From a virus (taxonomy: Duplodnaviria; Heunggongvirae; Uroviricota; Caudoviricetes), in the IMG/VR virus record IMGVR_UViG_2909314774_000001: a stretch of 64,000 bases of DNA; one strand, written 5' to 3'. This document shows, piece after piece, positions 7,014 through 52,085 of this stretch; within the stretch, counting starts at the first letter, position 1, and the number at the start of each line of letters is the position of its first letter. The position numbers were made by a program, and so were the translations under genes. The notes below the pieces were generated by a model. The model did no database searches, had not been told where the DNA came from, and saw only the letters and a list, made by a program, of their open reading frames with translations.

Positions 7014-8720
7014 ATGGAATCGATAGAAGTATTTTTAAAAAATTTTTTGGACTCAGATCATCGGGTTGCTGTCATAAAAGGAAATTGGGGAGTAGGTAAA
7101 ACGCATTATTGGAATAGCTTTTATACTAAACATTCTAAAAAATTAGATTTTAATGCATATTCATATGTTTCTTTGTTTGGAATAAATTCTATTGGAGACA
7201 TTAAAAAAGCTCTTTATCATTGTGCCACACCAATTAATGAAAAGAAATATAAAGAACTGATTTTATCTGAAACGGATCGAACTATGATTCGTTATAGAAA
7301 TGGGTTTTGGGGATGGTTGAAATACAACTCCTTGTCAAAATTTTTAATACATTTTGGAAAGAACGATTTTTTTGGGTTCAAAACTGATAATCTGCTGTCA
7401 TCTCTTGAGTATAAATTTGTTAATAATTATTTGGTTTGCATTGATGATATTGAACGAAAAGGTAGTGCGCTAGAAATTAAAGAGATTATGGGGGTAATTG
7501 ATGAGTTGGCAAGAAGAAAAAATTGCAAGGTTGTTCTAATATTAAATGAAGATAACTTACATGAAGAAACTGCACAACAACAGTTTTTAGAGTATAGAGA
7601 AAAAATAATTGATGTGGAAATAAAATACGATCCCACGCCTGAGAAAAACTTAAGAAAAGTTTTTTATGAGACTGACCCTGATTTTCTTTTGTTAAAAAAC
7701 CTAGTAAATGATTTAAACATCAAAAACATTAGAATATTAAATAAAATAAAATCATCTCTAGTTATATTTAGAGATGTGCTAAAGTTAGCAGAGGATAAGG
7801 TTAGAGAAAGTTTTATTAATAGATTGGTCTTATTTTCAGTGGTTTACTATTTTGGTGTTCCTAGCGTTGATTATGCTTCATTTAAGGAGTCAATCAAAAA
7901 TATACATGCATTCGACTATATGTTAGATGATAAAGATGAAAAGGAAGAAGTTAACTCTGTATATTCATTTGTTAATAGCCTTGATGTTATTTATGAACGA
8001 GCAGAAAGTGCTTTCGATGATGATATAGATTTTTACCTTAAGAACGGTTATGTTTCTTCTGAAAGCAATATTCTAAATATAATAAAAGAAAAAAATGAAC
8101 AATATAGAGATAATAGGGTTTTATGTGAGGTTTATAAAATTTGGGATGTTTTTAGAAACTCTTTTAAAGATAATGAATCAGAGTTTATTTTTCAAATTGA
8201 GCGCGTAATTAACGATAGTCTGTTGCGTATACCAATTGGACAGTTCGTAGGTTTAATAAATGTCCTAATTAAATTGGATAGAGATTGTAATAATATTATA
8301 GAGGCATATGCAGATGCTTTTGTTAATAAAGAAAATGCGTATGCTACATTTAATTCTTTGCGAGTAGAGATCTTCGGAAATGAAGAATTAGGTTTCAGAA
8401 TTGAAAAAAAATTGAAAGATAGAAATCCAGATGACTATAACTTAGATAAAATTATAAAAAAAATAGCTGGTGGAAGATTTAACCATAGTGATGTGAATAT
8501 TCTTAACAGTTTTTCTAAAGATGATTACGTAAACTGGATATTATCCTGTGATCAGGATGCTTTGAATTTAGTAGAAGAGACTATGCTCAAGTTCAAGGGT
8601 ATGCAACACCCGACAGACGAACAGAAGAGCATCACTGATAAAGCAATAGAAGCTTTGGAGGAAGTTGCTTCAAAATCAACACTTAATAAGCTGCGTGTTA
8701 ATAAAATACTCAATCATTAA
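7014..8720 (+). CDS. KAP-family P-loop NTPase (PifA-like)
   Basis: Walker A GNWGVGKT at residues 22-29 and Walker B LVCIDDIERK; the gene is markedly more AT-rich than its neighbours. Confidence 0.65.
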   Translation: MESIEVFLKNFLDSDHRVAVIKGNWGVGKTHYWNSFYTKHSKKLDFNAYSYVSLFGINSIGDIKKALYHCATPINEKKYKELILSETDRTMIRYRNGFWGWLKYNSLSKFLIHFGKNDFFGFKTDNLLSSLEYKFVNNYLVCIDDIERKGSALEIKEIMGVIDELARRKNCKVVLILNEDNLHEETAQQQFLEYREKIIDVEIKYDPTPEKNLRKVFYETDPDFLLLKNLVNDLNIKNIRILNKIKSSLVIFRDVLKLAEDKVRESFINRLVLFSVVYYFGVPSVDYASFKESIKNIHAFDYMLDDKDEKEEVNSVYSFVNSLDVIYERAESAFDDDIDFYLKNGYVSSESNILNIIKEKNEQYRDNRVLCEVYKIWDVFRNSFKDNESEFIFQIERVINDSLLRIPIGQFVGLINVLIKLDRDCNNIIEAYADAFVNKENAYATFNSLRVEIFGNEELGFRIEKKLKDRNPDDYNLDKIIKKIAGGRFNHSDVNILNSFSKDDYVNWILSCDQDALNLVEETMLKFKGMQHPTDEQKSITDKAIEALEEVASKSTLNKLRVNKILNH

Positions 8721-8728
8721 TAGATTAT

Positions 8729-8791
8729 GACCTGCTTCCGTATGTATTTAATAAGTTACTTATTATTTGTATATACAGAAGCAGGTCTTTT
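8729..8791. terminator. Long palindromic element / putative bidirectional terminator
   Basis: Stem GACCTGCTTC...GAAGCAGGTC enclosing an AT-rich loop, then TTTT; a near-twin sits at 56152-56226. Confidence 0.5.
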
Positions 8792-8901
8792 AAAGACACC
8801 CACCAGAACAAGTCCCTTCCGTTTCCACTTCCAAAAACTGCCACCAGTCGCTATCATCCGCTCATTGTGATAAGTAAGTAACTACCTACCAGGTGAGCCA
8901 C

Positions 8902-9642
8902 ATGAGCCAAATCTTTTTCGATACCATCGACAACGACCAGTACGACTTCATGACAGAGTGGAATACCGCTGTTATGGACAAGTGGGTTGCTGAAAACATT
9001 GGTTTGTCGCGCTGCAAAGACGAGGCTGAACTGTTTGAGACGAAGTGGTTTGATTACCGCGATATGCATCCTCTCATGGCCACCTGTCTGTTTACGGAGG
9101 CATACAAACGTCAGTACTCAAATATCATGCTGACGCACGGTCGTGAACACTTTGAAACAGCTCCGTTCACCACCGGGTTAAAACGCTTGCCTTATCAGGA
9201 GTTGTCGACTGCTAATAAAACGTCGCTATGGAAAGCACGCCAGTTTGCGGATCGCTATTGCTGCTCATACGACTACTTTATCTCCACTGTTCTTTCCGCA
9301 GCTGCACGACGTCTGTGGGACAAGCTGCCTCGCCCACAGCATTTGTGGCAGCCAGAACTGATTGAGATATTTGAAGAGAAATTAGCCAGACGCGCAACAA
9401 CCCGTCTGGATGACTCTCTGGTTAGCTTTAAGCATATGGGAGACATGCAGTTCAACCCGATTCAGGAAAGCTATTTTGAGTGGATTCTGGAGCGTTTGCG
9501 CACCATCCCTCGCAGCAAGCGCATACGCGCAATTTTCTCCGCTATCTGGCTAATGGAAATCGTTCCAGAGCGCCTTATTTCCGACCACTTTCCAGAAGAA
9601 CTGGAAGAAGCACGGCGGTTTATTGATCCCCTATCTAATTAA
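8902..9642 (+). CDS. Hypothetical protein
   Basis: ORF with AGGTGA RBS 5 nt before ATG 8902; no recognisable motifs. Confidence 0.5.
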   Translation: MSQIFFDTIDNDQYDFMTEWNTAVMDKWVAENIGLSRCKDEAELFETKWFDYRDMHPLMATCLFTEAYKRQYSNIMLTHGREHFETAPFTTGLKRLPYQELSTANKTSLWKARQFADRYCCSYDYFISTVLSAAARRLWDKLPRPQHLWQPELIEIFEEKLARRATTRLDDSLVSFKHMGDMQFNPIQESYFEWILERLRTIPRSKRIRAIFSAIWLMEIVPERLISDHFPEELEEARRFIDPLSN

Positions 9643-9685: not shown

Positions 9686-11026
9686 ATGACCGAACTTTGC
9701 CATACAGGACGCGGGCTGTCCGAAGAGTTTGATGAAGATTTCCAGAACAGACTGACGGCATATTTTTGTCGTGATCACGAGTTTCTTACTCGTGCGGGAG
9801 ATCTGGTTGTGCCTAGCCAGTTTGCCAATGCGGCCAATGCCATATTGGTTAATATGGTTTCGGGCTATTACCGTATGTACAAGAGCGCGCCCTCTTCATC
9901 TGCAATTCTGGATATGCTTAAGCGTGCGAAACGCGATAAGACTATCCGTGAGGAACTATTCGCCGATGTTGTTGCTGCGTTTAAGCGCATTCTTGCAGAA
10001 AAATTGTCCGATACCTCGTACATGGTTGACCAGGTATCAACCTTCGCAAAAAGTGTAGCGTTTGATGATGCTCTGATTAAGGCTGCTGAACTGAAAGAGA
10101 AAGGCGACTTTCAGGGGGCGATGGCAATCATGGCCAAGGTTCAGCAGATTGGATCGAACGAAGCGACCGGAATCTATGACTACTACACCTCCGCAAGTGA
10201 GCGATTGAAAGCGCGTGAATATGAGGCTTCAGAGGAGTATGTACCAAACAGTATTACAACTGGACTCCCTCTTCTCGATAGGTTGCTGTACCAAAAAGGC
10301 TGGGCAAAGCGCGAAATGGTGCTCTTCATGGGGTTCGCTAAATCCGGTAAATCGACCGCAATGGGTGAGTTTTCCATAAACGCAACGCTTGCTGGCTACA
10401 ATGTTCTGTATCTCTCGCTGGAGGTTCACACCACCATTTTATCCGACCGTTTTGATGCAAGATTGTCGGAGACAGAAATGTCCAAGCTGGTGGAACGGCG
10501 CGATGAGGTTCATCGTAAGTTGGCAGAGTTGGGAGCCACGAAGGGGATTGGTAGTTTGTGGGTGGTTGAGCGTCCGTCAGGAAGTATGTCACCGGCAGAT
10601 CTGGACCGTATGCTTAACAGCATGAAAGCCAACGGCATGGTACCTGACATGGTTGTTGTCGACTACGCAGATTTGATGCGTGCCAGTTATGACCTTCGTG
10701 ATGATCGCGCCAACATTCGTAGTATCTACACCGATTTACGTGCTCTTTATGACAAGCATAACGTTGCTGGGATCACGGCATCGCAGACAAACCGTGAAGG
10801 TGGAGCGTCAGAAGTTGCCACAATGATGCACGCTGCCGACAACATCGAAAAAGTACGTATTGCTGACCTGGTAATAACGATCAACAAAACCGAAGAAGAA
10901 GAAGCGAAAGGAGAGGCTCGTCTCTACTTTGCTGGTTCACGTAACCAGCAGGGAGGGATCAGCATTCGCGTTAAACAAAACCTCGAACAAATGCGCTTCA
11001 TTGAGCGAATCTTAGACGTTACCTAA
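9686..11026 (+). CDS. DnaB-family replicative DNA helicase
   Basis: Walker A GFAKSGKST and RecA-like C-terminal domain; conserved AAAGGAAAGCACATG start context. Confidence 0.85.
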   Translation: MTELCHTGRGLSEEFDEDFQNRLTAYFCRDHEFLTRAGDLVVPSQFANAANAILVNMVSGYYRMYKSAPSSSAILDMLKRAKRDKTIREELFADVVAAFKRILAEKLSDTSYMVDQVSTFAKSVAFDDALIKAAELKEKGDFQGAMAIMAKVQQIGSNEATGIYDYYTSASERLKAREYEASEEYVPNSITTGLPLLDRLLYQKGWAKREMVLFMGFAKSGKSTAMGEFSINATLAGYNVLYLSLEVHTTILSDRFDARLSETEMSKLVERRDEVHRKLAELGATKGIGSLWVVERPSGSMSPADLDRMLNSMKANGMVPDMVVVDYADLMRASYDLRDDRANIRSIYTDLRALYDKHNVAGITASQTNREGGASEVATMMHAADNIEKVRIADLVITINKTEEEEAKGEARLYFAGSRNQQGGISIRVKQNLEQMRFIERILDVT

Positions 11027-16424: not shown

Positions 16425-16499
16425 GATGGTGTAGCTCAGCGGTAGAGCAGTTGGCTGTTAACCAACTGGTCGGTGGTTCGAATCCACCCACCATCGCCA
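16425..16499 (+). tRNA. tRNA-Asn (anticodon GTT)
   Basis: Hand-folded cloverleaf: acceptor GATGGTG/CACCATC, anticodon loop CTGTTAA, T-loop GGTTCGAATCC, 3' CCA encoded. Confidence 0.85.
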
Positions 16500-16504
16500 A
16501 TTTA

Positions 16505-16591
16505 GGGGAGTTAGTCCGTAGGGGCAGCGGGGTAGACTGTAAATCTACTGTCATTGCGACTCGGGTGGTTCGACTCCATCACTCCCCACCA
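16505..16591 (+). tRNA. tRNA-Tyr (anticodon GTA), class II with long variable arm; D-arm non-canonical
   Basis: Acceptor GGGGAGT/ACTCCCC, anticodon arm GTAGA-CTGTAAA-TCTAC, T-loop TTCGACT, CCA encoded; the D-arm would not fold canonically by hand. Confidence 0.6.
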
Positions 16592-16595
16592 AATT

Positions 16596-16671
16596 GCCGG
16601 TTTAGCTCAGTTGGTAGAGCGCCTGCCTTGTAAGCAGGATGTCAGCGGTTCGATCCCGTTAACCGGCACCA
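16596..16671 (+). tRNA. tRNA-Thr (anticodon TGT)
   Basis: Acceptor GCCGGTT/AACCGGC, D-arm GCTCAGTTGGTAGAGC, anticodon loop CTTGTAA, T-loop TTCGATC, CCA encoded. Confidence 0.85.
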
Positions 16672-16762
16672 ACACAACAGGTAAGAGCATTGGGCGAATC
16701 GGCGATACTGACCACAAGCCCGTAAATCGATAGAGTCAGACCAGTGCTCTTACCGTTGTGAG
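16672..16762. repeat. Long imperfect hairpin C (candidate structured RNA)
   Basis: Arms CAACAGGTAAGAGCATTGG / CCAGTGCTCTTACCGTTG, ~47 nt loop; begins right after tRNA-Thr. Confidence 0.5.
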
Positions 16763-16807
16763 GAAGTGCAGCTCTTTGAAGCAACCAGAAGATAAGCATC
16801 TGGCTTC

Positions 16808-16892
16808 ACAACACAACGATAAGATCATTACGGTTAATCGTCGTTCATGTGCACAATGACTGGTCGAAAGGTAGTGATCTTACCGTTGTGAT
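16808..16892. repeat. Long imperfect hairpin D (candidate structured RNA)
   Basis: Arms CAACGATAAGATCA / TGATCTTACCGTTG, ~48 nt loop. Confidence 0.5.
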
Positions 16893-16990
16893 GAATGCAC
16901 AGGCTGATGTGCCGCAACTACAGTAGTGCGCGCTTTGCGGGGCTTGCTACAACCCTGTGTCGGAGTTCAGCACCGACCATCACAATAGCT

Positions 16991-17074
16991 GGAGAGTAGG
17001 GAGCATGGTGCTCAAGCGGTCTTGAAATCCGTCCCATTGTGCAAACGATGATGGTTCGATTCCATTACTCTCCG
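16991..17074 (+). tRNA. tRNA-Ser (anticodon TGA), class II; D-arm and anticodon stem imperfect
   Basis: Acceptor GGAGAGT/ACTCTCC with discriminator G and CCA; anticodon loop CTTGAAA; T-loop TTCGATT; long variable arm. Confidence 0.55.
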
Positions 17075-17075
17075 C

Positions 17076-17157
17076 CAGACACAGCGTTGAGCGGTTTGGC
17101 CTTTTAATCAACCAGATTAAGACTCCGCTAACATAAACCAGACCGCTCAACGCTGTG
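17076..17157. repeat. Long imperfect hairpin E (candidate structured RNA)
   Basis: Arms ACAGCGTTGAGCGGTTTGG / CCAGACCGCTCAACGCTGT, ~38 nt loop; directly after tRNA-Ser. Confidence 0.5.
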
Positions 17158-44767: not shown

Positions 44768-47083
44768 ATGATAAGCATCGTAAAACGTAACGGCCAAACA
44801 GAGCCGTTATCCGAAGAAAAATACAACCGCGTCGTAATGTATGGCGTAGAAGGCATTCGTGGTGTAAGCGCATCCGCTGTAGCAATGGGAGCTGCGGCCA
44901 GCATTTTTGATGGGATTACCACCAGCCAGTTGCATGAGGCTTTGGTTAAATCTGCCGCTGATTTGATCTCACCAGAAGCACCAAATTACTCACAGGTGGC
45001 TGCCCGCCTGAACATTTTTAAAATCCGCAAAGATGCCTTCGGTCGTTACGACTATCCGAACTTCTACCAACACATTGTCAAGAACGTTAACAAGGGCGTT
45101 TATGACAAGGATTTGCTGACACATTATTCGTTTGAAGAGATCGAAGAACTCGGCAATTACATTAAGCCGAAACGTGACGATCTTTTTGGCTATGCAGCTA
45201 CGGTGCAGTTGCAAAGCAAATACCTCGTTCAAAACCGTGTTACTGGTGAGATTCATGAGGGGCCGCAACATATCTATATGCTGGTAGGCATGTGTCTGTT
45301 CCAGAATTGGGAAGACGACTGCGCTGGCAAAACACGTATGGAGATGGTCAAAGGTTTCTATGACGTTACAAGTACGTTCAAACTGTCTCTGCCCACACCA
45401 ATCATGGCCGGCGTCCGTACTCCAACCCGTCAGTTCTCCAGTTGTGTGCTGATTGAGTCTGGCGATAGTCTGAAAGGGATTAGTGCAGCTTCAGCCGCAA
45501 TTATCGACTACGTTTCACGTCGTGCTGGAATTGGTATTGGTTTTGGCCGTATCCGTGCGCTGGGCAGCGAGATCCGCAATGGTGAAGCCACCCATACCGG
45601 AGTTATTCCATTCCTGAAGCATTTCCAGACTGCTGTTAAATCTTGCTCGCAAGGTGGTGTCCGTGGTGGCGCAGCAACAGCGTTTTACCCGATCTGGCAT
45701 CTTGAAGTTGAAAGTCTGCTGGTGGTGAAAAATAACCGTGGTATCGATGAAAACCGCGTTCGCCATCTTGATTACGGCGTCATGAGTAACCGTCTGATGT
45801 ACCGTCGACTCGTCAGAAGCGAGAACATCACTCTGTTCAGCCCGCATGATGTGCCTGATATGTACGAAGCCTTCTTCACAGATCAGGATCTGTTTGAAAA
45901 GCTGTACCATAAATACGAAGCCGATGATTCAATTCGCAAGAAGTCAGTACCTGCCATTGAGCTGTTCTCATCTCTGATGCAGGAACGAGCGTCCACGGGC
46001 CGAATTTATATTGCGAACGTCGATCATATTAACGAGCATGGCGCTTTCATTCCTGCTCTTGCACCTGTTCGCCAGTCAAACCTGTGCATGGAGATCACTC
46101 TACCCACCCGTCCACTGGCATTTACCGACGACCCGAACGGTGAGATCGCGCTATGCACTTTATCCGCTTTTAACCTCGGAGCCATCCGTTCACTGGAGTC
46201 TCTTAAAGAGGTGGCGTTCTATGCCGTTGCTGCACTGGATTCGTTACTGGATTATCAAGACTATCCGATGGAGGCAGCCGAAGTGCCTGCCAAAGCTCGT
46301 CGTAGCTTGGGAATTGGTGTAACCAACTTTGCTTATTACCTGGCAAAGAATGGCGTTCGTTATTCTGATACCGCTGGCAATAAACTGGTGCATGAAACGT
46401 TCGAAGCTATCCAGTATTACCTTCTTGATGCCAGCTGCCGACTTGCTGAAGCAAAAGGTGAGTGTGACTGGTTTGAGCAGACCAAGTACGCAATTGGTCA
46501 GTTGCCGATCGACCATTACCGTTCTTCATTAGACGAAAGTGGCGAAACCAACTTTGAGTTAAAGATGCCGTGGGAAGAACTGCGTGAACGTATTGCAAAA
46601 TACGGCCTTCGCAACTCCACACTGACGGCACAAATGCCATGCGAGACTTCCAGCCAGATCACTAATTCCACCAACGGCATCGAACCGCCTCGTGGCCCGG
46701 TGTCGGTGAAATCTTCTAAGGACGGCATCGTTAAGATGGTCGTGCCTGAGTTTGAAAAACTGAAGGAACAGTATGAATACCTGTGGGATATGCCGGACAA
46801 CCGCGGCTATCTGACAAAGGTGGCGATCATCCAGAAGTTCTTTGACCAGGCTATTTCAGCCAATACCAACTATGACCCTTCTCGCTTTGAAGGCGATAAA
46901 GTCCCAATGATGACGCTACTGTCAGATTTGCTTCTCGCCTACAAGATGGGAGTTAAAACGCTTTACTACCACAACACCAGAGATGGGGCAGGAAAGCGTG
47001 ATGACGACGAACCGCAGAATCCACTGACGCAAGCTGTAGCCGTCGAGCCAGAAGATGAGTGCGACGGGGCCTGCAAAATCTGA
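44768..47083 (+). CDS. nrdA: Ribonucleotide reductase class Ia large subunit
   Basis: N-terminal ATP-cone, catalytic SNLCMEI motif, C-terminal Cys pair (CDGAC). Confidence 0.9.
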   Translation: MISIVKRNGQTEPLSEEKYNRVVMYGVEGIRGVSASAVAMGAAASIFDGITTSQLHEALVKSAADLISPEAPNYSQVAARLNIFKIRKDAFGRYDYPNFYQHIVKNVNKGVYDKDLLTHYSFEEIEELGNYIKPKRDDLFGYAATVQLQSKYLVQNRVTGEIHEGPQHIYMLVGMCLFQNWEDDCAGKTRMEMVKGFYDVTSTFKLSLPTPIMAGVRTPTRQFSSCVLIESGDSLKGISAASAAIIDYVSRRAGIGIGFGRIRALGSEIRNGEATHTGVIPFLKHFQTAVKSCSQGGVRGGAATAFYPIWHLEVESLLVVKNNRGIDENRVRHLDYGVMSNRLMYRRLVRSENITLFSPHDVPDMYEAFFTDQDLFEKLYHKYEADDSIRKKSVPAIELFSSLMQERASTGRIYIANVDHINEHGAFIPALAPVRQSNLCMEITLPTRPLAFTDDPNGEIALCTLSAFNLGAIRSLESLKEVAFYAVAALDSLLDYQDYPMEAAEVPAKARRSLGIGVTNFAYYLAKNGVRYSDTAGNKLVHETFEAIQYYLLDASCRLAEAKGECDWFEQTKYAIGQLPIDHYRSSLDESGETNFELKMPWEELRERIAKYGLRNSTLTAQMPCETSSQITNSTNGIEPPRGPVSVKSSKDGIVKMVVPEFEKLKEQYEYLWDMPDNRGYLTKVAIIQKFFDQAISANTNYDPSRFEGDKVPMMTLLSDLLLAYKMGVKTLYYHNTRDGAGKRDDDEPQNPLTQAVAVEPEDECDGACKI

Positions 47084-47188: not shown

Positions 47189-48331
47189 ATGTCATATTCA
47201 ACGTTCCGTTTGGGTGCTAATGATGCAACCAAAGAGCCTATGTTCCTCGGACAATCTGTCAACGTGGCACGTTACGATCAGCAAAAATACCGTGATTTTG
47301 AAAAGTTGATTGAACGTCAATTGTCTTTCTTCTGGCGGCCGGAAGAAGTTGATATTTCGAGCGATCGTATCGACTTCAACACGAAGCTGCGGGACCACGA
47401 ACGTCACATTTTTCTGAGCAATCTCCGTTATCAAACGTTACTCGATTCAGTTCAGGGACGTAGCCCAAATGCAACGCTGCTGCCGCTTATCTCTATTCCT
47501 GAACTGGAAACGTGGGTTGAAACATGGTCTTTCTCTGAGACTATCCATAGCCGCAGCTACACCCACATTATTCGTGGCATGGTGGACGATCCGAGCATTG
47601 TTTTTGACGGTATTGTTACGGATGAAGAAATCATCAACCGAGCGATCAGTATCTCTGCTGAATATGACAGGCTTTATGGGATGACCTGCGAGCGCCAGTC
47701 GTTAGGTGAGAAGGAGTTTGAACGTCTGTACGTAAATGAATATGGCTGGGAGCCATACCCTTTGCACCGTCAGCTTTTCCGCACGTTGGTGTCCATTAAT
47801 GCGCTTGAGGCGATCCGTTTCTATGTAAGTTTTGCATGTACGTTTGCCTTTGGCGAACGGAAGTTGCTTGAGGGTAACACCAAAATTATGCGCTTTATTG
47901 CCCGTGATGAAGCTCTGCATTGCGAAGGAACTGAACGCATGATCCGCTTCATGCGTACCGGTCGCGAAGGTTTATTGTGGAAAGAGATTGCTGCTGATGA
48001 AGAAAACGTCATTTACGACACCATGAAATCAGTAGCCGAACAAGAAATGAACTGGGCAGACTATCTCTTCAAAGACGGTTCGATGATTGGTTTAAACGCG
48101 GACATTCTCAAAACCTATGTAAAATACCGCACCAATCTGGCTATGAATCGTCTTGGCCTGAAGGCTTTATTTCCAGAAGTTACCACTGATCCGCTGGTCT
48201 GGATGAACAAGTGGTTGTTAACCGACACACTGCAAATTGCACCACAAGAGGCAGAGCAAAGTACATATCTGGTAGGTCAGATCGATTCTACCGTGGATAA
48301 GGCTTCTCTAAGCCAGTTTGCTGACCTGTAA
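47189..48331 (+). CDS. nrdB: Ribonucleotide reductase class Ia small subunit
   Basis: Di-iron ligand motifs (E..H in FGERKLLEG...DEALHCEG); start moved to ATG 47189 with the conserved AAAAGGAAAAACACATG context. Confidence 0.9.
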
Positions 48332-48408
48332 ACCGATACAAAGCATTATGTGGCCTGGCAACGCTGGGCCACAATGGATCACAAGAATTAAGAAGGAACA
48401 AAACTAGC

Positions 48409-49278
48409 ATGAACTTTACCAAACTGACTGACCACCTGAAACTTGCCACCGATCGACTCATTGGATTTAAGCCAGAACCATATGAGTTGCATGAAGGTCA
48501 TGGTGTAGCTACTGAAAGTATTTACAAGATGGTCGATCAGTTTCATGAACTATTCCAGCATCCGAGACGCGTTATGCCGACACCAGAGCTGCTTCGTCTC
48601 CGTGCAAGCCTGATTCATGAAGAAGCTGTAGTGGAAGGTATTCCAGCCGCAATGAATGGGGATATTGAGCAACTGCTGGATGCAATGGCCGACTTTTTAT
48701 ACGTTGGTGTTGGTACGATGGTCGCCATCAAAGGTGGTATTTCTACCGGCATGACCTATTACACGCAGGAACAGAGCATTGATCGCTTTATGCAGACAAT
48801 TTTTGTGCCCGGTAACACTGTTTTCGATGATATGGCAATGCCATTTCAGGAAGCTCGTGAGGCGTCATGTATGCTCGAAGAGCTGGCAGATAAACTTGAG
48901 AACAAGACTGTTAAGGATTCTGAGCTGATTCAGGAACTGCGCCGTGTCATGAACAAAATCTATGTGGCGTGCATGATGACCTATCGACTGGCTGATTTCC
49001 TCGGTATCAATGTAGTCGAGCTGGTTGGCGAAATTCATCGGTCTAACATGACAAAATTATGGCCTGCTGATGTTGAGGAACGTCGCCAGGCTGTGGCCAA
49101 CTGCAAATACGACTCTTCAGATCTGGGATTCCGCCATGCTGATGGCACCGATAAGATGATCGGTTTTCGAATTTCCGATGGAAAGATTCTGAAGTCTCCA
49201 ACCTATAGTGATGTCGATTTATCCTCCTTTGTTGAGCAAGCTAAAGCCTCAGCAATGTACGGAATGATCAAAAAATAA
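48409..49278 (+). CDS. Hypothetical protein, possibly an all-alpha nucleotide pyrophosphohydrolase (MazG/dUTPase-like)
   Basis: Sits between nrdB and thyA; the functional guess rests on context and a loosely MazG-like E..E...D pattern. Confidence 0.3.
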   Translation: MNFTKLTDHLKLATDRLIGFKPEPYELHEGHGVATESIYKMVDQFHELFQHPRRVMPTPELLRLRASLIHEEAVVEGIPAAMNGDIEQLLDAMADFLYVGVGTMVAIKGGISTGMTYYTQEQSIDRFMQTIFVPGNTVFDDMAMPFQEAREASCMLEELADKLENKTVKDSELIQELRRVMNKIYVACMMTYRLADFLGINVVELVGEIHRSNMTKLWPADVEERRQAVANCKYDSSDLGFRHADGTDKMIGFRISDGKILKSPTYSDVDLSSFVEQAKASAMYGMIKK

Positions 49279-49449
49279 TTGTAGGTAGTTATCTATCTGT
49301 GTATATTGCGTTGGCGCGTTAAATTTCTGAAACAACTATTCGTTTTTGGTGGCCTATGGCCACCATTTTTTTATCTATCTGGTCTTGTTCTCTCAATAAA
49401 TGTAAACTCACGCAATGAATAAGTGGTTACTTATCTTTGTGAGGTTTTT

Positions 49450-50553
49450 GTGTCACTCCTTTTGAATCGTGAGCATACGAACGGTCAGGTAACAAACGCA
49501 TCGTATGCAAAAGTTATTGAGACGGTGCTTAAAAGCGGCGTGCAGGCTGATGATCGCACAGGCACTGGTACTTTAAGCACCTGCTACGTTCCCTCTTACT
49601 ACATGCTTACTGGTGGGACTGTGCCGCTTATTTCTGGAAAGGCGGTAAATCTTAAGCCACTGCTTGTCGAACTTGAGTGGTATCTGAAAGGCACGGGCAA
49701 CATCCAATTTCTCAAGGATAACGGCGTTAAGATTTGGGATGCATGGGCCGATGAGAATGGCGATTTGGGGCCGGTTTACGGTAAGCAGTGGCGTCGATGG
49801 GAAGATACCCGCATCGTGAGCCATAGTGAATATCTGAGCAAGATCGCTACTTTCCGTGAACGCGGGTACAAAGTCGAGGGATACCTGGGTATCAGTGAAG
49901 ATCGCGTAGTGCTGTCCCGTGAAATCGATCAGCTACAGCGTATTGTCGATACACTGCGCACGAACCCTACCGATCGTCGCATCATGCTTAACGCATGGAA
50001 CGTAGGCGAGCTTGAGGATATGAAACTGCCACCTTGCCACTTTGTCTTCTCTTTGTGGAGTCGTGAGCTGGATTTTGAAACCCGTTTAACGATGGCAACT
50101 GACATTGGTCTTCAACACAGTCGCCTCGGTTACGAGTCTATCTACACCAAGATGCTATACGATCTGGAGATGGACGGCAGTGTTACTGAAGCTGAACTGG
50201 ATGAACTTGGAATCCCCAAACGCATCCTCAACTCCTGCCTCGTACAGCGTAGCGTAGACACTTTTGTTGGTATGCCATTCAATATTGCTGGCTATGGCAT
50301 TCTCACTCATTTTCTCGCGAAGATTACGGGTCACATGGCCGGTGCATTTGTGCATTTTGGCTTTGACGTGCATTTGTACAACAACCACATGGAAGGTGTG
50401 TGTGAGCTAATGAAACGACAGGCTCCAGAGCATTCAGATCCGGTCGTTATTTTCCCTCATGAATGGTCAGAGTTGGATGATTTCAAATGGGACGAGGTTT
50501 TAATTCTTGGCTATGACCCTCTATCGTGGATCAAGGTTCCAGTGGCGGTGTGA
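49450..50553 (+). CDS. thyA: Thymidylate synthase (ThyA family) with two internal insertions
   Basis: Motifs DRTGTGT, IWDAWADENGDLGPVYGKQWRRW, DRRIMLNAWNVGELEDMKLPPCH, VGMPFNIAGY, FDVHLYNNH, GYDP...KVPVAV; start set at GTG 49450 with GAGG upstream. Confidence 0.85.
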   Translation: MSLLLNREHTNGQVTNASYAKVIETVLKSGVQADDRTGTGTLSTCYVPSYYMLTGGTVPLISGKAVNLKPLLVELEWYLKGTGNIQFLKDNGVKIWDAWADENGDLGPVYGKQWRRWEDTRIVSHSEYLSKIATFRERGYKVEGYLGISEDRVVLSREIDQLQRIVDTLRTNPTDRRIMLNAWNVGELEDMKLPPCHFVFSLWSRELDFETRLTMATDIGLQHSRLGYESIYTKMLYDLEMDGSVTEAELDELGIPKRILNSCLVQRSVDTFVGMPFNIAGYGILTHFLAKITGHMAGAFVHFGFDVHLYNNHMEGVCELMKRQAPEHSDPVVIFPHEWSELDDFKWDEVLILGYDPLSWIKVPVAV

Positions 50554-50554
50554 T

Positions 50555-50968
50555 ATGGCAAGAGGTATGTATGTCTTATGCGAAATTGAAGGTGTGCTGG
50601 CAAATGCCAGCCATCGTAAATCAGTATCTGACGCGGATGCAGGCCAGCTCATTGCCGGTGATGAACTCATTTTCCCCACCAGCCGTATGTTGCGTGGTTT
50701 TGCTCGCTCAGGGGCTGAAGTGGTGCTTATCAGTAGCCGCTCTGAAACTCTTGAAGCGCCCACTAAACGATGGCTGAAAGATTTTGGCGTTGATTACGAC
50801 TGGCTTCATCTCGTACCGAATAGCACCAGTTATGAGAAGCATATTAAGCGCACATTAGCGGAGCATAAAGGCGATCTGCTTATCGCTGCGCTGGTGCACG
50901 ATCCTCGACTCCGTGCCGCTTTAGCTGACTCTCATCATAGACCGGTCATCTATGAGGTGAGCAAATGA
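50555..50968 (+). CDS. Hypothetical protein
   Basis: 137-codon ORF between thyA and the DHFR gene. Confidence 0.4.
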   Translation: MARGMYVLCEIEGVLANASHRKSVSDADAGQLIAGDELIFPTSRMLRGFARSGAEVVLISSRSETLEAPTKRWLKDFGVDYDWLHLVPNSTSYEKHIKRTLAEHKGDLLIAALVHDPRLRAALADSHHRPVIYEVSK

Positions 50969-51441
50969 AGATGATAGCTGCTGTTGGCCGTAACTATGAG
51001 ATCGGCATAGCGAACGAACTGCCCTGGCGTTGTTCTACCGATCTGAAGCTATTTAAGAGACTCACCAAAAACGCCACTGTCGTTATGGGGCGTAAAACGA
51101 TGGAAAGTCTCAAACGCCCTCTTCCAGAGCGTCATAACCTCGTTTTGACGCGCTCTCATGGCTTTGTACCAAATGGATTCTACCCTGCTGGTGTGGATGA
51201 TGTGTTGCGATTACCAGAGCCTGTGTGGGTGATTGGCGGGGAACAAATTTACTCGCTATTCATGCCGCATGTTGAAGAGATTTGGCTCTCCCACATCGGC
51301 GTTGATGTACCAAACGCCGATGCATTCTTCCCGGCAAGCATGATGCGTAACTTAGGCTTTGTGCCTGTTGAAACAGCTTATACCCAACGAGCCAGCGAGG
51401 AAGAGCCTGGCTTTTCGCAGATCGTATACAGAAGGTCGTAA
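50965..51441 (+). CDS. folA: Dihydrofolate reductase
   Basis: MIAAVGRNYEIGIANELPW...VVMGRKT...VIGGEQIY matches DHFR. Confidence 0.85.
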   Translation: MKMIAAVGRNYEIGIANELPWRCSTDLKLFKRLTKNATVVMGRKTMESLKRPLPERHNLVLTRSHGFVPNGFYPAGVDDVLRLPEPVWVIGGEQIYSLFMPHVEEIWLSHIGVDVPNADAFFPASMMRNLGFVPVETAYTQRASEEEPGFSQIVYRRS

Positions 51442-52085
51442 TGGATTACCGGATTGGGATCACTGGTGCTCAGGGCAGTGGGAAAACAACCCTGGCTAAA
51501 TATATCGACAAACATTACGGAATCCCTTACGTGGATGCTGGTGTCGGAAGTTTGATGAGCCGCCTCGGTGTTCTAGTAGGTGAGTCTATGCCTCTATATG
51601 AGCGGCTTCAGATTCAAATGGAAATAGCAAAGCATATAGAGCTACTTACACGTGGTGTTGAAGGCTTTATTATCGATCGCACACCTGCTGATGTTATGGC
51701 CTACACGTTGGATTTGGTCGGCCATACAAATGAAGATCGGTGTATTGAGTTAGCCCTCGATATCGAAAAGTTTTGCCACAAAACTGCTATTTCAAACTTT
51801 AACGCCATTGCTGGCTTACGCCCGGGAGTCGCTCTCTCAGAGCGAGATTACTTGCGATCACAACGAGCATCATTAGACCGTCTGTATGTCGCTCGTATTG
51901 ATGCGTTGATGTGCGGGGAACTGACAAAAATTCACCTGCATCCGCAAAGGGGAGATCTGCAAACCTTCGTCGTTTCCAACCGATATCGCACGGTTGAAGC
52001 AAGAGCCAGATCAGTGATGAGAATGCTAGATAACGCTGTAGAAAAGATAGAAAACCGGTTCTGTGGCCGAGTAACCGTTCATTAG
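51441..52085 (+). CDS. P-loop nucleotide kinase-like protein
   Basis: Walker A GITGAQGSGKTTLAKY; sits in the nucleotide-metabolism cluster. Confidence 0.5.
   Translation: MDYRIGITGAQGSGKTTLAKYIDKHYGIPYVDAGVGSLMSRLGVLVGESMPLYERLQIQMEIAKHIELLTRGVEGFIIDRTPADVMAYTLDLVGHTNEDRCIELALDIEKFCHKTAISNFNAIAGLRPGVALSERDYLRSQRASLDRLYVARIDALMCGELTKIHLHPQRGDLQTFVVSNRYRTVEARARSVMRMLDNAVEKIENRFCGRVTVH

Follow-up and report, generated by a model that had tools for sequence, protein, structure and literature searches.

A ThyA-type thymidylate synthase with two predicted structured inserts in an SSU5-like phage-plasmid

Thymidylate synthase (TS) is a textbook enzyme and drug target, and its known structures differ at few surface sites only. 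The stretch of DNA analyzed here (64,000 nucleotides of the Caudoviricetes record IMGVR_UViG_2909314774_000001, hereafter the window) contains at 49450-50553, on the plus strand, an open reading frame (ORF) of 367 amino acids (aa), thyA, which begins with GTG, ends with the TGA stop at 50551-50553 and was described in a first-pass annotation of the sequence as a ThyA homologue with two sizeable insertions. We asked whether its product is a genuine TS, whether the additional segments are real and what they might do. Our results indicate that the protein is very probably a true TS, forming deoxythymidine monophosphate (dTMP) and carrying two real, structured and inherited inserts. The coordinates first given for the gene were exact, and the ORF matches a coding sequence (CDS) of Escherichia phage Cyrano.

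Family assignment and catalytic residues

The ThyA protein matched PF00303 in two stretches (E=7.6e-78, 261.8 bits against a threshold of 24.3), TIGR03284 (217.2 bits, cut-off 108.35) and PHROG 160 (E=5e-94), and the same CDS is annotated in Cyrano, in SSU5 and in Klebsiella phage ST13-OXA48phi12.3. We also built an AlphaFold2 (AF2) model from an alignment of 61 homologues, which reached a predicted local distance difference test score (pLDDT) of 94.4 and a predicted template modelling score (pTM) of 0.92. When this model was compared by Foldseek with the E. coli TS structure 1tys (E 3e-31), the template modelling score (TM) was 0.94 on the E. coli chain and 0.68 on the query; therefore, about 30% of the model is extra to E. 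coli TS. Identity in the core is 44% to E. coli ThyA and 44-49% to bacterial ThyA proteins.

Residue mapping showed that the E. coli catalytic and ligand positions are kept (R21, K48, E58, I79, W80, W83, Y94, R126, R127, L143, P145, C146, H147, Q165, R166, S167, D169, G173, F176, N177, D205, H207, Y209, H212 and the C-terminal PVA[I/V]), and 42 alignment columns, catalytic and ligand positions among them, are invariant over the 61 homologues. The initial observation that all ThyA catalytic motifs are present, including the cysteine of PPCH, is borne out by a TS-type residue at every catalytic position. Cys196 and His197 of PPCH, which correspond to E. coli C146 and H147, are encoded at 50035-50040 on the plus strand. 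The asparagine said to specify uracil is present too, but it does not lie in FDVHLYNNH, where it had been placed: it is N278 in PFNIA (codon 50281-50283, plus strand), the counterpart of E. coli N177, and FDVHLYNNH contributes H308 and Y310 (E. coli H207 and Y209). N177 is the pyrimidine-specificity residue of TS, and the roles of Asn177 and His147 have been described (PMC8670742). Present as well are the arginines that bind the phosphate of deoxyuridine monophosphate (dUMP), namely R36, R267 and R176/R177 (E. coli R21, R166, R126' and R127'), and the folate and hydride-transfer set E74, W96, W99, Y110 and D270, with a C-terminus ending in IKVPVAV.

Considering the conserved residues and what is known of the family, Cys196 would make the nucleophilic attack on C6 of dUMP, while N278 and H197 would recognize the uracil and R36 and R267, together with R176 and R177 of the partner subunit, would hold the phosphate. 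The methylene group of methylenetetrahydrofolate would be transferred and then reduced by the cofactor hydride under the closed PVAV C-terminus, with dTMP and dihydrofolate as products. The dihydrofolate would be recycled by DfrA51, a dihydrofolate reductase (DHFR) encoded two genes 3' of thyA in the same coupled operon. The conserved R176/R177 and the DHFR gene of the operon suggest an obligate homodimer with these two products.

The two inserts: position, predicted fold and spread

A phmmer search against all PDB sequences aligned the protein with E. coli TS in three blocks (query 18-118 with E. coli 3-102, 156-203 with 106-153 and 261-367 with 160-264). By MAFFT, the query has 34 aa more than E. 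coli ThyA at E. coli 101-105 and 51 aa more in the 153-158 beta-hairpin, close to the roughly 33 and 50 residues estimated at first. Taking phmmer, MAFFT and the AF2 model together, insert 1 covers residues 119-155 (DTRIVSHSEYLSKIATFRERGYKVEGYLGISEDRVVL; 49804-49914, plus strand) and insert 2 covers residues 204-260 (SRELDFETRL...GIPKRIL; 50059-50229, plus strand). Both have block pLDDT values of about 89-98 in the whole-protein model. Insert 1 lengthens a surface hairpin and is predicted to form a three-stranded sheet (117-124, 141-146 and 152-159) with two short helices.

Insert 2, which is acidic (net charge about -6), is predicted to form three helices (209-225, 231-242 and 247-253) at the tip of a hairpin made of strands 197-206 and 258-270. 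Modelled alone from a 16-sequence alignment, it kept its secondary structure unchanged with a pLDDT of 92 and a pTM of 0.72, and therefore behaves as an autonomous mini-domain. The strands that carry it begin at the catalytic C196/H197 and finish at R267/S268, so that the tip would stand about 10 strand residues, or roughly 30 Å, away from the active site. These strands are probably part of the sheet through which TS subunits dimerize, and the one that follows insert 2 is the counterpart of human TS LSCQLYQR, an octapeptide reportedly derived from the interface strand itself. LSCQLYQR was designed to target the monomer-monomer interface of human TS and was bound there crystallographically (PMC8041318).

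To place these segments among known enzymes we used human, L. casei and T4 TS sequences that are exact matches to 1hw3_A, 1lca_A and 1tis_A. E. coli ThyA (1tys, 2tsc) has the same fold, catalytic and ligand residues and C-terminus as the query, but lacks the +34 aa and +51 aa inserts and a 15-aa N-terminal extension. This extension (about 15-17 residues by MAFFT; 49450-49500, plus strand) has low pLDDT at residues 1-4 only, and its remainder is continuous with a helix at 11-29. Human TS, as eukaryotic TS, has 8-11 extra residues at the insert-1 site, where the query has 34, and nothing at the insert-2 hairpin. L. casei TS carries a 50-aa insertion (L. casei 90-139) after the position of E. coli N87 and likewise nothing at the insert-2 hairpin; human and L. 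casei TS, the textbook cases of TS with insertions, illustrate that surface insertions are tolerated while the chemistry stays the same. After N87, human TS has 12 extra residues, T4 Td 8, the jumbo-phage phiKZ enzyme 118 and that of the megaphage Lak 43, whereas the query has none, and a TS of the L. casei type with an enlarged small domain was rejected on this ground. T4 Td (1tis) resembles the query as a phage ThyA that works with a phage DHFR, but its insertions fall at E. coli 74, 87 and 232 and those of the query at 101-105 and 153-158. The small surface insertions of T4 TS were reportedly discussed by Finer-Moore et al. in 1994 as contacts in the T4 complex that synthesizes deoxynucleoside triphosphates (dNTPs). 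None of the solved TS has extra residues at hairpin 153-158. The site of insert 1 is used in solved TS, and that of insert 2 lies on a hairpin that is probably flanked by dimer-interface strands.

We then considered how the inserts are conserved. Against SSU5 and the Klebsiella phage, the nonsynonymous divergence (dN) in the inserts was 0.04-0.30 with saturated synonymous divergence (dS), and dN/dS was 0.03 where it could be computed; at the level of sequence comparison, both inserts are under purifying selection. Their DNA has the same GC content, overall and at third codon positions, as the rest of thyA, so that base composition gave no sign that the inserts were acquired recently. D119, T120 and R138-G139-Y140 of insert 1, together with R121, are conserved in the SSU5-like clade. 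Over 50 two-insert TS proteins, R212 and P256 of insert 2 are invariant and L260, R258 and D251 are conserved at 84-98%.

The two-insert subgroup is defined here, not curated, by at least 11 aa at E. coli 101-105 and at least 28 aa at 153-158, the second insert having ...ER... at its start and LD..xP.R.L at its end. Besides the query, it takes in about 30 SSU5-like cluster representatives, about 20 distant proteins from phages or metagenomes, and the TS of Wellington, Goslar, SPAsTU and phiKZ. Both inserts were present in all of the roughly 35 closest cluster representatives (46-100% identical, on contigs of about 100-113 kb), whose sources are Salmonella, Klebsiella, Enterobacter, Raoultella, Morganella, Providencia and Xenorhabdus. 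The two-insert form also extends to some 20 proteins of lower identity (36-42%, 315-354 aa), and the two distant loci that we examined, on 104-kb and 356-kb contigs, have phage-like genes.

Among cultured phages, the next-best matches were TS proteins of jumbo phages: Erwinia Wellington, Salmonella SPAsTU/SPFM and E. coli Goslar. Alignment showed the inserts at the identical two sites in Wellington gp257, Goslar gp141, SPAsTU TS and phiKZ gp235. The jumbo-phage group, which includes 201phi2-1 and the SPAsTU/SPN3US group besides those proteins, shares with the query the boundary motifs of insert 1 (W-x-D-x-R-[VI] ... RG[YF]) and of insert 2 ([ST]RE[LM]..ER ... LD..G[IVA]P.R.L[SN]), at 34-40% identity. 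It differs in the length of insert 2, 41-45 aa or, in phiKZ, 70 aa, in having no DHFR or other common neighbour adjoining the TS gene and in that its carriers are lytic, not phage-plasmids. A profile comparison of insert 2 between the SSU5-like clade and jumbo or uncultured phages gave an hhalign probability of 97.3% (E 2e-11), and BFVD models of phiKZ-like TS matched the query model with TMq values of 0.85 and 0.82, the best structural matches in BFVD, against at most 0.70 for any solved TS. A core-only neighbour-joining tree leaves a single clade of insert-2 bearers unresolved, and their exact monophyly appeared in 0 of 100 bootstraps. Because of this, a single origin is supported by the inserts themselves (position, motifs and hhalign) and not by the core. 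Taken together, the inserts appear to have been inherited within a line of phage TS shared with phiKZ-like jumbo phages, and would link the nucleotide-metabolism genes of these phages with those of SSU5-like phage-plasmids.

No relatives of insert 2 were detected outside TS. Apart from a few marginal matches, an insert-2 profile run against 1.84 billion representatives returned SSU5-like TS only. Insert-only phmmer searches of the PDB returned nothing for insert 2 and one chance match for insert 1. The marginal insert-2 matches (E 4e-4 to 9e-4) were proteins with helix-turn-helix-like repeats, which have only '...IP[KR]R' in common with the insert and were judged chance. Their repeats, '...EIAKELGV...TI..W...Y.IP[KR]R', look like 'ELDELGIPKR' at the C-terminal end of insert 2, a likeness that is probably fortuitous and helped by repetition.

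No published description of the inserts was found in the literature on SSU5, pHCM2, jumbo phages, phiKZ gp235 and phage-plasmids, where TS is mentioned as an annotation only. The annotation of the gene as TS is already known, in hundreds of records. What appears to be undescribed is a phage-specific structural variant of TS with an autonomous helical mini-domain, found in SSU5-like phage-plasmids and phiKZ-like jumbo phages. It is a widespread phage-borne form with a small, predicted self-folding domain at a site unused in solved TS. Nothing known is overturned by it, and the chemistry of the enzyme looks ordinary.

Two relatives deserve a separate mention. The phiKZ protein gp235 (883-2349, 488 aa) combines the two inserts, the second of 70 aa, with an insertion of about 118 aa after N87, and is the most elaborated TS seen here; its knock-down had a weak effect only (PMC12571901). 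In Prevotella phage Lak-A2, a megaphage, a single 522-aa ORF at 964-2529 contains DHFR_1 and Thymidylat_synt and is thus a DHFR-TS fusion; in its TS domain, insert 2 and a 43-aa insertion at the L. casei site are present and insert 1 is absent.

Alternative identities and the role of the inserts

A different enzyme could in principle stand behind the same fold. If the protein were a dUMP hydroxymethylase, it would make 5-hydroxymethyl-dUMP for modified DNA, and the inserts might open the active site to water. Such enzymes are ThyA homologues that keep Asn177; SPO1 gp29, for which this activity is established biochemically, has 383 aa and also exceeds a minimal TS, and a MazG-like NTPase and a P-loop kinase stand near thyA, as in phages with hydroxymethyluracil. 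We nevertheless consider this identity very improbable. An alignment against ThyA and a dUMP hydroxymethylase, proposed in the first-pass annotation, showed that gp29 belongs to the ThyA superfamily as the query does and keeps the Cys, Asn177, R21, R166, E58 and Y94, but is only 19% identical to the query (BLASTP E 0.023). Wherever gp29 differs from TS (W80 absent, W83F, H147N, R127Q, F176A, D205S and no TS C-terminus) the query is TS-type, with W96, W99, H197, R177, F277, D306 and PVAV, and the additional length of gp29 is a C-terminal extension, not the inserts of the query. Moreover, the query passes the TIGR03284 equivalog with its 44-49% core identity to bacterial ThyA, its operon holds a functional-type DHFR, which TS needs for tetrahydrofolate regeneration and a dUMP hydroxymethylase does not (PMC4528723), and the Cyrano annotation of the region has no genes of the 5-HMUDK or aGPT-Pplase type. 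The early preference for thymidylate synthesis over hydroxymethylation is thus favoured by the TS-type residues, TIGR03284, the low identity to gp29 and the DHFR. An action on dCMP, as methylase or hydroxymethylase, has next to no probability: the superfamily is the same and Asp at position 177 goes with cytosine modification in phage homologues, but the query has the dUMP-type residues at both 177 (Asn, N278) and 147 (His, H197), and the model fits T4-type gp42 homologues much less well (BFVD TMq 0.48). We give just as little credit to the idea that the extra segments are alignment artefacts, the weakness that had been foreseen for the initial claim, or in-frame remnants of an intein or group I intron, although group I introns and homing endonucleases classically reside in phage td/thy genes. 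Three independent methods (HMMER as phmmer, MAFFT and Foldseek) agree on the boundaries, Rfam (E<=1) returned nothing for 48000-52000, neither an intron nor a leader RNA, and segments of 37 and 57 aa are far too short for an intein and gave no intein-like, family or PDB matches. The ORF is also continuous, with purifying selection at the protein level, high-confidence folds and a GC content like that of the rest of the gene. Insert 2 ends about 5 codons upstream of the td homing cleavage position Q165/R166, presumably outside the I-TevI/I-BmoI site, and the idea of a disrupted homing site was dropped.

Some observations weigh against a genuine TS with two real, structured and inherited inserts. 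The stricter NCBIfam TS equivalogs NF002497 (259 against 327), NF002499 and NF002496 score under their cut-offs, because the inserts split the profile match. No enzymology was found in the literature for this TS or for any two-insert relative. Insert 2 has a hypervariable middle, in both sequence and length, and either insert can occur by itself: RaK2 Td carries just the first and the Lak-A2 DHFR-TS just the second. Finally, as to the role proposed below for the inserts, no conserved partner gene is common to the SSU5-like and jumbo-phage TS loci, and within about 3 kb of two-insert TS genes in jumbo and uncultured phages none was found.

As regards the role of the inserts, we tentatively put forward, as a possibility short of even confidence, that they do not alter the chemistry but serve in quaternary structure or offer a docking surface to other phage proteins. 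A more specific version is doubtful: insert 2, possibly with insert 1, could be a module peculiar to phages that acts, from the dimer-interface hairpin, on quaternary structure or docking, either as a homodimer lock or as an enzyme tether. As a lock, it would prevent the phage enzyme from pairing with the host ThyA (44% identical) in mixed dimers that might be inactive; as a tether, it would keep TS bound to DfrA51, ribonucleotide reductase and the kinase, much like the T4 dNTP-synthetase complex. Phage-plasmids and nucleus-forming jumbo phages would both have received the module by inheritance. The main rival, itself somewhat unlikely, is that the inserts are tolerated, lineage-specific decorations inherited from an ancestral phage TS, with no dedicated function and retained only because their removal would destabilise the fold. 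This would agree with the poor conservation of the insert-2 centre, whose length ranges over 36-72 residues, with a mean pairwise identity of 0.22-0.29 in the inserts against 0.52 in the core, with the separate occurrence of the inserts in RaK2 and Lak-A2 and with the missing partner gene in the neighbourhood. Against it stand the purifying selection, with dN well under a saturated dS, and the invariant R212 and P256 and nearly invariant D251, R258 and L260 over very divergent phages; the inserts are moreover kept in compact genomes, from phage-plasmids to jumbo phages, and insert 2 is predicted to fold autonomously.

Operon, neighbouring genes and carriers of thyA

Between the gene for the MazG-like protein and thyA lies a terminator-like hairpin (49347-49365, an 8 bp stem with 6 GC) followed by a T-run (feature 49347-49375, plus strand), found by consensus scan and read in the sequence, and this predicted terminator would mark the start of the thyA operon. 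A ribosome-binding site GAGG was read at 49441-49444 (plus strand), 5 nt upstream of the GTG. The start codon is GTG here and in Cyrano and TTG at the homologous codon in SSU5 and ST13-OXA48phi12.3; non-ATG starts in all relatives compared may mean that translation initiation is deliberately low or regulated.

The gene order of the translationally coupled operon is thyA, a HAD-like gene, the DHFR gene (DfrA51) and a P-loop kinase gene, all on the plus strand. The HAD/PNKP-phosphatase-like gene (50555-50968, 137 aa) follows the thyA stop after 1 nt (TGA-T-ATG) and was assigned by PHROG 5387 and by a match to PF25109 of 22.7 bits, under the cut-off of 27.6. The DHFR gene (50965-51441) overlaps its end by ATGA and is of the DfrA51 type (Pfam DHFR_1 E=1.6e-34; NCBIfam trim_DfrA51 338 bits against a cut-off of 322). 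The DHFR had been called adjacent to thyA: it does belong to the same overlapping operon, but the 137-aa HAD-like gene stands between them. The SSU5 orthologue of this DHFR raised the trimethoprim minimal inhibitory concentration when cloned (PMC12217456) and is therefore a working DHFR; in an earlier study, the SSU5-type DHFR of E. coli O104:H4 gave no resistance (PMC7725336). The kinase gene (51441-52085, 214 aa), whose start overlaps the DHFR stop in TAATG, encodes a thymidylate/(d)CMP-kinase-like P-loop protein (Pfam AAA_28; PHROG 2107 thymidylate kinase, E=2.9e-10; weak TIGR02173).

Upstream, also on the plus strand, are NrdA (44768-47083) and NrdB (47189-48331), identified as ORFs and by the Cyrano annotation, and a MazG-like NTP pyrophosphohydrolase of 289 aa (48409-49278; Pfam PRA-PH, PHROG 671). 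Together with NrdAB, the MazG-like protein, DHFR and the kinase, the thyA locus probably forms a dTTP-supply module for phage replication.

Across the thyA region, identity is 99.6% with Escherichia phage Cyrano and 78% with Salmonella phage SSU5. In Cyrano, thyA is surrounded by genes for ParA, RepA, toxin-antitoxin pairs, DNA polymerase III alpha, primase, helicase, ligase, a RecA-like protein and tail proteins, among others, which is the gene content of an SSU5-type phage-plasmid. By tblastn, the ThyA protein was found in 756 PLSDB plasmid records (Klebsiella 346, Escherichia 202, Enterobacter 90 and Salmonella 49), 743 of them non-mobilizable and, among the records listed, mostly of 105-120 kb; carriers with annotation name the gene 'thymidylate synthase'. 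On these plasmids, which come mostly from Klebsiella, E. coli, Enterobacter and Salmonella, the trimethoprim-resistance DHFR DfrA51 is encoded close to thyA, and an extra TS-DHFR pair could affect antifolate susceptibility, as well as thymidine supply at phage-plasmid induction.

Several minor observations were made along the way. Some database copies of the SSU5-type TS are frameshifted or truncated and one is an extended form of 505 aa, which may reflect pseudogenes or assembly errors in some phage-plasmids. A flavin-dependent TS of the ThyX type was rejected, since no Pfam family other than PF00303 matched at E<=0.01, and the 'ThyX' label in OV696614 is wrong. In that Cyrano record, the ThyA gene (8024-9127) is labelled 'ThyX Thymidylate synthase' and the kinase gene (10015-10659) 'ABC transporter ATP-binding protein'; profile searches re-identify them as ThyA (PF00303) and as thymidylate/(d)CMP-kinase-like. 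In the MazG-like protein, PRA-PH covers residues 42-106 only, and the other 180 or so residues have no family match. Canonical HAD motif I is DxDG[TV]; the HAD-like protein reads CEIEGV here and CEIEDV in SSU5 and the Klebsiella phage, with both catalytic Asp replaced by Glu, so that from its motif it may be non-canonical or non-catalytic. Lastly, three tRNAs are annotated in the near-identical Cyrano record, without tRNA-Tyr, and ARAGORN found four tRNA genes at 16425-17077 of the window (Asn-GTT, Tyr-GTA, Thr-TGT and Ser-TGA).

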